DNA of 64,000 nucleotides from a virus (IMGVR_UViG_2778261571_000004); one strand, 5' to 3'; counted from the first letter of the stretch, positions 14,647-15,890 are shown. Numbers and translations are program-made. The notes: generated from the sequence alone by a model not told the origin.

Positions 14647-15890
14647 GCGAGTTGAGTTATCTGGAAAAATTGCTGGATGGGGTTGAGGTTGAGTGGTTGC
14701 CATTGGGGAAACTAGGTGAATTAGTTCGTGGAAATGGATTGCCTAAGTCTGATTTTACCGAATCTGGGGTTCCTGCCATACACTATGGTCAGATATATAC
14801 TTTTTACGGATTATCTACTGAAACAACAAAGTCATTTGTTTCCCATGAAACGGCGAAGAAGCTTAAAAAGGTTAACTCTGGTGATGTTGTTATTACTAAC
14901 ACAAGCGAAAATTTTACTGATGTTGGTAAGGCGCTTGTTTATCTAGGTAAAGAGCAAGCTGTTACTGGTGGCCATGCAACTATTTTCAAGCCAAATAGCA
15001 CTATTATTGGGAAATACTTTGCCTATTTCACGCAAACGGATTCTTTTGCAAATGAGAAAAGGAAATACTCCAAGGGAACTAAAGTAATTGATGTGTCTGC
15101 ATCGGATATGGCGAAAATTATTATCCCTATCCCCTGTCCGGAAAATCCCAAAAAATCCCTTGCTATCCAGTCTGAAATCGTTCGGATTCTGGACAAATTT
15201 ACTGCACTTACCGCTGAGCTTACCGCTGAGCTTACCGCTGAGCTTACCATGCGTAAAAAACAGTACAACTACTATCGCGACCAATTGCTGAGTTTTAAAG
15301 AAGGTGAGGTTGAGTGGAAAACTTTGGGAGAAGTGGCTCAATACTCGAAAACAAGAATTAGTTTCGAACTACTTGATGAAAGGAATTATGTTGGCGTAGA
15401 TAATCTGCTGCAAAACAGAGCAGGAAAATCATTATCTAATCATGTACCGACATCAGGTAAATTAACGGAGTTTATACCTAACGATATACTGATTGGGAAT
15501 ATCCGCCCATATTTGAAAAAAATTTGGCAAGCAGATTGTATCGGTGGAACAAATGGCGATGTATTGGTTATTCGTTGCATAGATAGCTCAATAAATACCA
15601 GATATCTATATCAGATTTTGGCAGATGACAAATTCTTTGAATACAACATGCAGCATGCTAAAGGAGCAAAAATGCCGCGTGGCAGTAAAGAGGATATAAT
15701 GAAATACCCAATCCCTGTACCGCCACTCACCTTGCAAGCTCGCATTGTCGAAATACTCAACAAATTCGATACCCTGACAAACTCCATCACTGAAGGTCTT
15801 CCGCGTGAAATCGAATTACGCCAGAAACAATACGAATACTACCGTGATTTACTGTTCAGTTTCCCAAAACCTGAAACTGTCAGTAATTAA
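14643..15890 (+). CDS. hsdS: Type I R-M specificity subunit HsdS (Type IC) with central TAEL repeats
   Basis: ATGA overlap with hsdM stop; two target-recognition halves separated by central region ...[14 protein letters not shown]...; conserved Type I HsdS framework ([13 protein letters not shown]). Confidence 0.9.
15207..15242 (+). repeat. three tandem 12-bp repeats cttaccgctgag (encoding TAEL x3) in hsdS central conserved region, approximate
   Basis: Direct reading; a fourth partial unit follows. Confidence 0.8.

Follow-up and report, generated by a model that had tools for sequence, protein, structure and literature searches.

A three-unit TAEL repeat in the hsdS gene of a type IC restriction-modification cassette on a phage-plasmid, and its natural unit-number variants

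A stretch of 64,000 nucleotides of viral DNA (IMGVR_UViG_2778261571_000004), which is called the window in the following, contains an hsdS gene with a short tandem repeat in its central part. The initial annotation had described this repeat as a length-variable specificity switch of the EcoR124 kind. This raised the question of whether the number of repeat units sets the target of the encoded enzyme and changes in nature, or whether the tract is a linker of constant length. The comparisons described below made it highly probable that the window carries an intact type IC (EcoR124-family) restriction-modification cassette, in which three TAEL units set the target spacing and the gain or loss of a unit switches the specificity. 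Statements on whether the window enzyme is active, on the half-sites that it reads, and on how and how fast units are gained or lost are inferred from these comparisons.

The hsd cassette and its relation to EcoR124

The hsdM-hsdS-hsdR cassette occupies positions 12985-19128 on the plus strand, and BLAST analyses against related loci revealed that it is a module common to other replicons, with differing flanks. All three genes are located on the same strand. The first gene, hsdM (13084-14646), encodes an N6-adenine methyltransferase subunit of 520 aa (Pfam N6_Mtase and HsdM_N), the second, hsdS (14643-15890), is an open reading frame for a specificity subunit of 415 aa (Pfam Methylase_S), and the third, hsdR (16012-19128), encodes a translocase-nuclease subunit of 1038 aa (Pfam HSDR_N, ResIII/SWI2_SNF2, T1R_D3-like and EcoR124_C). 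The start of hsdS overlaps the stop of hsdM by 4 nt (ATGA), while hsdS and hsdR are separated by a gap of 121 bp. All three genes are of full length, and the reading frame of hsdS is intact. A scan for promoters and terminators yielded only weak consensus matches, which were not usefully above background; a weak sigma-70-like site in the hsdS-hsdR gap (15918-15947, plus strand, 9 of 12 consensus matches) might possibly be a separate promoter of hsdR.

The subunits were compared with proteins of known structure. In the PDB search, residues 1-520 of HsdM were aligned with residues 1-520 of the EcoR124II M protein (7bst_D, 1161.6 bits), and residues 1-1038 of HsdR with residues 1-1038 of EcoR124 HsdR (2w00_A, 2268.6 bits). 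HsdS matched the EcoR124I HsdS (7bst_A, 404 aa, two TAEL units) with an E value of 2.9e-75. Near-identity was present in three places only, i.e., the first 20 residues, the central region (IPIPCP...EVEWKTLGE) and the last 50 residues. The order of an N-terminal conserved region, TRD1, a central helix, TRD2 and a similar C-terminal helix fits the layout of type IC proteins. HsdM and HsdR proteins of the same family are usually more than about 70% similar to the family reference, and type IC proteins are characterized by a central conserved region with tetra-amino-acid units in tandem (TAEL, LEAT, SEAL or TSEL; PMC10030836). Every type IC sequence feature that was tested was found in the window, i.e., the similarity of HsdM and HsdR, the layout of HsdS, the tetra-amino-acid units, and the operon order on a mobile element. 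The end-to-end matches of HsdM and HsdR and the near-identical conserved regions of HsdS bore out the annotated membership of hsdS in the EcoR124 (type IC) family. The near-identity of HsdM and HsdR to their EcoR124 counterparts also makes it likely that the subunits could complement those of other type IC systems.

The two TRDs gave a different picture. TRD1, the variable domain that is predicted to read the 5' half-site (about aa 20-160, positions 14700-15122, plus strand), has no meaningful identity to TRD1 of EcoR124I, and TRD2, the variable domain which is predicted to read the 3' half-site (about aa 223-360, positions 15309-15722, plus strand), differs from TRD2 of EcoR124I; the boundaries of both domains are approximate. 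Neither of them could be meaningfully aligned to the EcoR124I TRDs in 7bst_A. The initial annotation had stated that TRDs unrelated to the EcoR124 family would speak against its proposal. The window TRDs do have no relation to their EcoR124I counterparts, but it is in the TRDs that the members of the family vary. Their dissimilarity therefore does not count against family membership, and this check was ill-posed. When TRD1 alone was compared with all PDB chains, only a remote match to the N-terminal TRD of EcoKI was retrieved (E = 1.4e-4); the TRD searches also retrieved the T. tengcongensis S subunit (E = 3.6e-4), and the matches of TRD2 were remote only. A prediction of the half-sites from these matches was considered and dropped, because the matches (1.4e-4 and 3.6e-4) were too distant to infer a recognition sequence. 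TRD2 is common to many hsdS alleles with a different TRD1, as matches that cover the query from 463 or 472 to 1248 revealed. The window hsdS is a new allele with new TRDs, of a kind of system that is thoroughly known already.

The closest characterized relatives are EcoR124I and EcoR124II of plasmid R124. They share with the window the gene order, the lengths of HsdM (520 aa) and HsdR (1038 aa), the conserved regions of HsdS, and the 12-bp unit described below. EcoR124II also shares the unit count of three, so that the window allele and its two-unit twin (see below) parallel EcoR124II and EcoR124I. In contrast, the window TRDs have no relation to the EcoR124I/II domains for GAA and RTCG, the half-sites differ, and the window HsdS has a threonine instead of an asparagine after the last unit. 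In addition, the window cassette resides on a phage-plasmid, and its twin resides on a phage-plasmid of a different, P1-like type and not on a variant of the window replicon. A gene for the anticodon nuclease PrrC (prrC) was not found between hsdS and hsdR of the window, where the gap comprises only 121 bp.

The repeat tract and the predicted target spacing

The repeat tract is located at positions 15207-15248 on the plus strand. It consists of three copies of CTTACCGCTGAG (15207-15242), followed by CTTACC (15243-15248). Tandem Repeats Finder reported a period of 12, 3.5 copies, 100% matches, no indels and a score of 84 with CTTACCGCTGAG as consensus, and the tract was the top-scoring tandem array of the 64-kb window. 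All three occurrences of the 12-mer in the window lie inside the hsdS tract, while 0.21 occurrences were expected by chance, and none of 100 shuffled windows reached three copies. The tract is in frame with the open reading frame 14643-15890 and codes for L189-(TAEL)x3-T202, with the TAEL units at aa 190-201. The codon that follows the last unit is Thr (ACC), whereas most relatives have Asn (AAC) at this position, and it is due to this codon that a partial fourth unit is present. The three perfect units and the partial fourth unit of the initial annotation were therefore recovered exactly, at 100% identity and in frame. The primer sequences published for EcoR124II indicate that its DNA unit is the same 12-bp sequence (PMC10644984).

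A structural model of HsdS was calculated with AlphaFold2 (45 homologues, mean pLDDT 85.9). It contains one long alpha-helix of residues 169-215, which corresponds to the central conserved region (15147-15287, plus strand), and a second helix of residues 362-404 in the C-terminal conserved region (15726-15854, plus strand), which is the antiparallel partner of the first. Both are near-identical to the respective helices of EcoR124I. The TAEL units are located in the middle of the central helix and opposite to the C-terminal helix. With three units, the stretch from ILDKF to RKKQY comprises 17 aa and is of equal length as the stretch from ILNKF to RQKQY in the C-terminal helix. This equality fits a review by Loenen et al., in which, based on alignments for EcoDXXI and EcoprrI, three units were proposed to look like the "optimum" (PMC3874165). 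According to this model, the two globular TRDs of HsdS would each read one half of a bipartite target, the antiparallel central and C-terminal helices would hold them apart as a spacer, and each TAEL unit would add about one turn to the central helix and place the methylated adenines one base pair further apart.

The effect of the unit number on the target is well documented for related enzymes. EcoR124I has two units and recognizes GAA N6 RTCG, while EcoR124II has three units and recognizes GAA N7 RTCG (PMC3874165, PMC10644984). EcoDXXI (TCA N7 RTTC) and EcoprrI (CCA N7 RTGC) share with the window enzyme a central conserved region with three TAEL units, and in EcoR124I/EcoDXXI hybrids the spacer was shifted as predicted when the unit number was altered (PMC3874165). 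Removal of one TAEL from EcoR124II led to EcoR124I specificity and changed the set of T5-like phages that were restricted (PMC10644984). The type IC system NgoAV of Neisseria gonorrhoeae is similar to the window system in its natural variation of tetra-amino-acid units, and this variation accompanies N6 versus N7 motifs in the methylome (PMC6789123). It is dissimilar in that its units are LEAT, its host is another one, and its specificity also requires a frameshift that truncates HsdS, while the window HsdS is of full length. In EcoR124I the methylated adenines are 7 nt apart, while the interval is 8 nt in EcoDXXI, EcoprrI and NgoAV (GCA N8 TGC) (Table 1 in PMC3874165). The rule given in the initial annotation, i.e., N6 for two repeats and N7 for three, agrees with this literature (PMC3874165, PMC10644984).

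By analogy, the methylated adenines of the three-unit window enzyme should be 8 nt apart, and its two-unit twin should have the same half-sites, adenines 7 nt apart, and a spacer that is one base shorter. The unit number fixes the distance between the adenines, while the number of unspecified bases depends on the format of the half-sites. Therefore, the N7 spacer that had been annotated is not strictly predicted: the 8-nt interval is in accordance with the literature on three-unit enzymes, but N7 itself would result only if the half-sites of the window enzyme have the usual NNA...RTNN format.

A less orderly outcome would be that the enzyme is of type IC, but that three units impair the function of this TRD pair or relax its specificity, so that, e.g., the enzyme would only methylate or would accept several spacer lengths. 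Gubler and Bickle (1991) reportedly found promiscuous recognition for altered linkers, and the TRD pair of the window was seen most often with two units (see below). In addition, the literature has not settled the register problem of how a one-sided extension of the helix is accommodated in the coiled coil (PMC3874165). On the other hand, three units make the central and the C-terminal linker equal, with 17 aa each, which is the "optimum" of the review; EcoR124II, EcoDXXI and EcoprrI are active three-unit enzymes; and all three hsd genes of the window are of full length. An impaired or relaxed enzyme is thus considered to be very unlikely, and a regular three-unit enzyme is the preferred interpretation.

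Twin alleles that differ in one repeat unit

A natural twin of the window allele was found. The window HsdS minus one TAEL is exactly identical to a protein of 411 aa (P0001), and at least 24 contigs encode this protein. On the DNA level, the comparison with five contigs (L004-L008) revealed that 1236 of 1236 nt of hsdS are identical after removal of one 12-bp unit. The twin alleles reside on different replicons. The backbone of the window is similar to that of about 110-kb phage-plasmids of E. coli such as pHXH-2, phage Cyrano and CMS-2020a, while the five contigs are P1-like phage-plasmids, in which the cassette is flanked by genes for the C1 repressor, phd/doc and DUF968. The homology to the P1-like contigs (98%) begins at 12985 and ends at 19128, and these are the borders of the cassette; the homology to chromosomal copies in the leuX island of E. 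coli (about 95%) extends from 13087 to 19163.

Most mismatches between the window and the P1-like contigs fall into hsdR or the first 480 bp of the cassette. Between positions 13465 and 16307 (2.8 kb) the 12-bp unit is the sole difference. This otherwise identical block contains most of hsdM, all of hsdS and the first 300 nt of hsdR, while the remaining part of hsdR has diverged by about 2-4%. The identity over 2.8 kb next to a diverged hsdR suggests that two families of phage-plasmids have recently exchanged the specificity region by recombination.

A second pair with the same TRD pair as the window was found on chromosomes of E. coli. Strain CFSAN061769 (L001) has three units and strain S56 (L002) has two; their hsdS genes are identical apart from the unit, and only 1 mismatch is present in the next 6 kb. 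Both copies are located in a chromosomal island adjoining a tRNA-Leu gene (leuX island). The phage-plasmid pair and the chromosomal pair differ from each other at 37 positions in hsdS and in the Thr/Asn codon after the tract, and therefore the unit number must have changed at least two times for this TRD pair. The same TRD pair most often has two units (P0001-P0007; matches H3-H6 and H41); it was found with three units in two complete E. coli chromosomes, and a one-unit form also exists (P0009). These natural twins, which differ in one unit only, are in accordance with the initially proposed switching by gain or loss of a unit. In S56, hsdM is split by an IS1 insertion (positions 3671-6004 of the locus), and therefore this copy of the system is probably inactive; in three other two-unit strains (H4-H6) hsdM is annotated as intact.

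It was considered whether the third unit could be an artefact of assembly or sequencing and the true allele could be the common two-unit form P0001. The exact protein of 415 aa was absent from a collection of 15 billion proteins, while its two-unit twin is present on at least 24 contigs, and none of 5,426 complete E. coli genomes contained a match of at least 99% identity to the 132-nt tract region. However, the tract of 42 bp is far shorter than any read and therefore not prone to collapse or expansion. Furthermore, the identical tract of 3.5 units is present on the DNA level in E. coli strain 779 together with other TRDs, the same TRD pair has three units in the two complete chromosomes mentioned above, and the reading frame is intact. 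The probability of an artefact is therefore regarded as negligible, and the third unit is treated as genuine.

In the two pairs one unit change is opposed to 0-1 substitutions over 2.8-7.5 kb. This suggests, on the basis of two cases, that the rate of unit change per locus could be thousands of times higher than the rate of substitution per site. Such a rate would probably fall short of the frequencies of classical phase variation, and with only three 12-bp units a change is probably rare per generation. Three-unit alleles are common in E. coli (see below), where they seem to be inherited stably. The TAEL tract thus looks like a switch on the evolutionary time scale, i.e., one of evolutionary turnover, rather than a demonstrated fast phase-variation switch. 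This distinguishes it from the phase-variable type I hsdS genes whose switching is caused by simple sequence repeats (Atack et al., 2020, PMC7383803). Common to both is a tract inside hsdS that alters the output of the methyltransferase, and the TAEL tract was named as a determinant of spacing in that study. In contrast, expression of the phase-variable genes is turned on and off at high frequency by tracts that are long and built from short units, while the window has three in-frame 12-bp units, which would alter specificity and not expression.

Unit numbers across the family and possible consequences

The unit number was surveyed in related proteins and genomes. The 120 closest HsdS proteins were grouped by the identity of their TRDs, and linkers of 9, 13 or 17 aa were counted as one, two or three units. 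Two units turned out to be the modal state. Seven groups of TRD combinations contain members with differing unit numbers, and two of these groups contain all three lengths among their database members. In IMG/VR, a gapped pattern retrieved 21 two-unit and 8 three-unit alleles; no one-unit allele was retrieved with this pattern, and no four-unit tract was found in that collection. In a collection of genome contigs with one genome per species the gapped pattern retrieved a single locus, which belongs to Mixta tenebrionis and has two units; due to its composition this collection cannot reveal variation within species.

Longer tracts were found at four loci in metagenome contigs (L040-L043), where perfect TAEL units number 4, at least 5, 6 and 6. 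The hsdS gene with 4 units (L042) is complete and located between the end of hsdM and the start of hsdR, and one of the genes with 6 units (L043) follows an intact hsdM, so that both operons appear intact over the part that the contigs cover. The other locus with 6 units (L041) lacks hsdM and its hsdS is truncated. To our knowledge, no natural enzyme with more than three TAEL units has been characterized.

In the 5,426 complete E. coli genomes the 132-nt tract query retrieved 1,338 records in 1,248 genomes, i.e., about 23% of the genomes carry a type IC central region. At least 406 of the 1,338 records matched with at least 95% identity, which is possible only with three units, and therefore these 406 have three units. 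An evenly spaced sample of 60 records contained about 28 three-unit and about 29 two-unit alleles, and neither a one-unit nor a four-unit allele. Based on this systematic sample and the one identity band, with spot checks on three loci (L045-L047), alleles with two units and alleles with three are present at about the same frequency in complete E. coli genomes. The idea that the three-unit state is generally a rare derivative was therefore rejected: it is true for the TRD pair of the window only, while in E. coli across the family the three-unit frequency is similar to the two-unit frequency.

The sequences of the units vary between lineages. In a diverged lineage, represented by the chromosome of E. 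coli Esc18 (L046), the tract consists of three copies of CTTACAGCAGAG, and one IMG/VR allele (L021) has two adjacent CTA-variant units. The units are thus homogenized within alleles and differ between lineages, which is concerted evolution of the tract as read from these comparisons and is the pattern that repeated duplication and loss of units would give. Among the top 120 protein matches all 10 three-unit HsdS representatives contain one imperfect unit (e.g., TAELTAKLTAEL or TAELTAEPTAEL), and a perfect three-unit HsdS was not found among them. It was considered whether three-unit alleles survive only when they are "locked" by a point mutation, but this was rejected, because perfect three-unit tracts are present in 7 of the 8 three-unit alleles in IMG/VR and are common in E. 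coli genomes. The RefSeq protein of CFSAN061769 is missing from the protein collection, and therefore the imperfect units are probably a sampling effect of this collection.

These counts bear on the question of whether the tract is a linker of fixed length in its lineage, with three stably inherited units, in which case "switch" would be a misnomer on the ecological time scale. Such constancy would be in accordance with the presence of only three 12-bp units, with the lack of one- and four-unit alleles in the sample of 60 E. coli records, and with the similar frequencies of three-unit and two-unit alleles, which indicate that both states persist. In contrast, two independent near-isogenic pairs differ essentially in the unit only, over 2.8 kb and about 7.5 kb, and therefore unit change outpaces point substitution over kilobases. 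Moreover, variants in unit number recur in many TRD groups, the units are homogenized within alleles, and the change from EcoR124 to EcoR124/3 arose spontaneously and was first noticed as such in the laboratory (reviewed in PMC3874165). A fixed linker is therefore judged to be unlikely, and a tract that gains and loses units, as proposed above, is favored.

The change of the unit number might proceed as follows. Identical 12-bp units could misalign during unequal recombination or replication slippage, whereby a unit would be added or removed; for EcoR124 the change has been ascribed to unequal crossing-over at the repeat (PMC3874165). The new unit number would generate a specificity that does not cross-protect although the TRDs are unchanged, so that the old sites would be neither recognized nor protected. 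Type IC systems establish in naive cells via assembly-controlled restriction alleviation, with a transition from R1M2S to R2M2S (PMC12707154), and due to this control a change of specificity would be survivable. The plasmid of the window and the P1-like plasmids with the two-unit twin would presumably not protect DNA against each other.

It is tempting to speculate further that the TAEL tract is a wider natural ruler of 1-6 units, and that the 12-bp change has made two phage-plasmids mutually restricting; this combined interpretation is possible, but we do not regard it as probable. If it were true, alleles with one to six units could give uncharacterized spacers from about N5 to N10, and a single 12-bp change after a recent exchange of hsdS would amount to an element-against-element exclusion of competing phage-plasmids.

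The TAEL-repeat mechanism itself has been known since 1987-1989, and thus current understanding is not overturned. The modest value of the locus is comparative: it provides a natural pair of a three-unit and a two-unit allele, in which every other nucleotide of hsdS is identical, on different mobile elements. The pairs are suited to measure the change in spacer for new half-sites, the frequency of unit change and the mutual restriction of related phage-plasmids. The survey adds the carriage of this type IC central region in about 23% of complete E. coli genomes, the similar frequency of two and three units among them, and uncharacterized forms with 4-6 units in metagenomes.

The remaining part of the window revealed several further features of this phage-plasmid. 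Just upstream of the hsd cassette a full-length gene for methionyl-tRNA synthetase (metG, 7877-10039, minus strand) and a gene for an ApbC/Mrp-type Fe-S carrier ATPase (10068-11168, plus strand) are located, which are housekeeping-like cargo of this phage-plasmid family. Two regions on the minus strand (30137-37950 and 50901-58028) form a block of replication and nucleotide metabolism, with genes for the large and small subunits of ribonucleotide reductase, an SbcC/Rad50-like ATPase, DNA polymerase III alpha, a CobT-like protein and an AAA_5 (CobS-like) protein, and an integrase gene is located nearby (58972-60075). A 21-bp tandem repeat (40390-40441, 2.5 copies, 74% matches) at the 5' end of the open reading frame of a Rep3-family initiator (40366-41580) may be iteron-like. 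An open reading frame of 779 aa (43759-46098, minus strand) combines a RecA domain with intein splicing and LAGLIDADG homing-endonuclease domains and represents an intein-containing RecA-like gene, and four tRNA genes (Ser-tga, Thr-tgt, Tyr-gta and Asn-gtt) are clustered at 61100-61797 on the minus strand.
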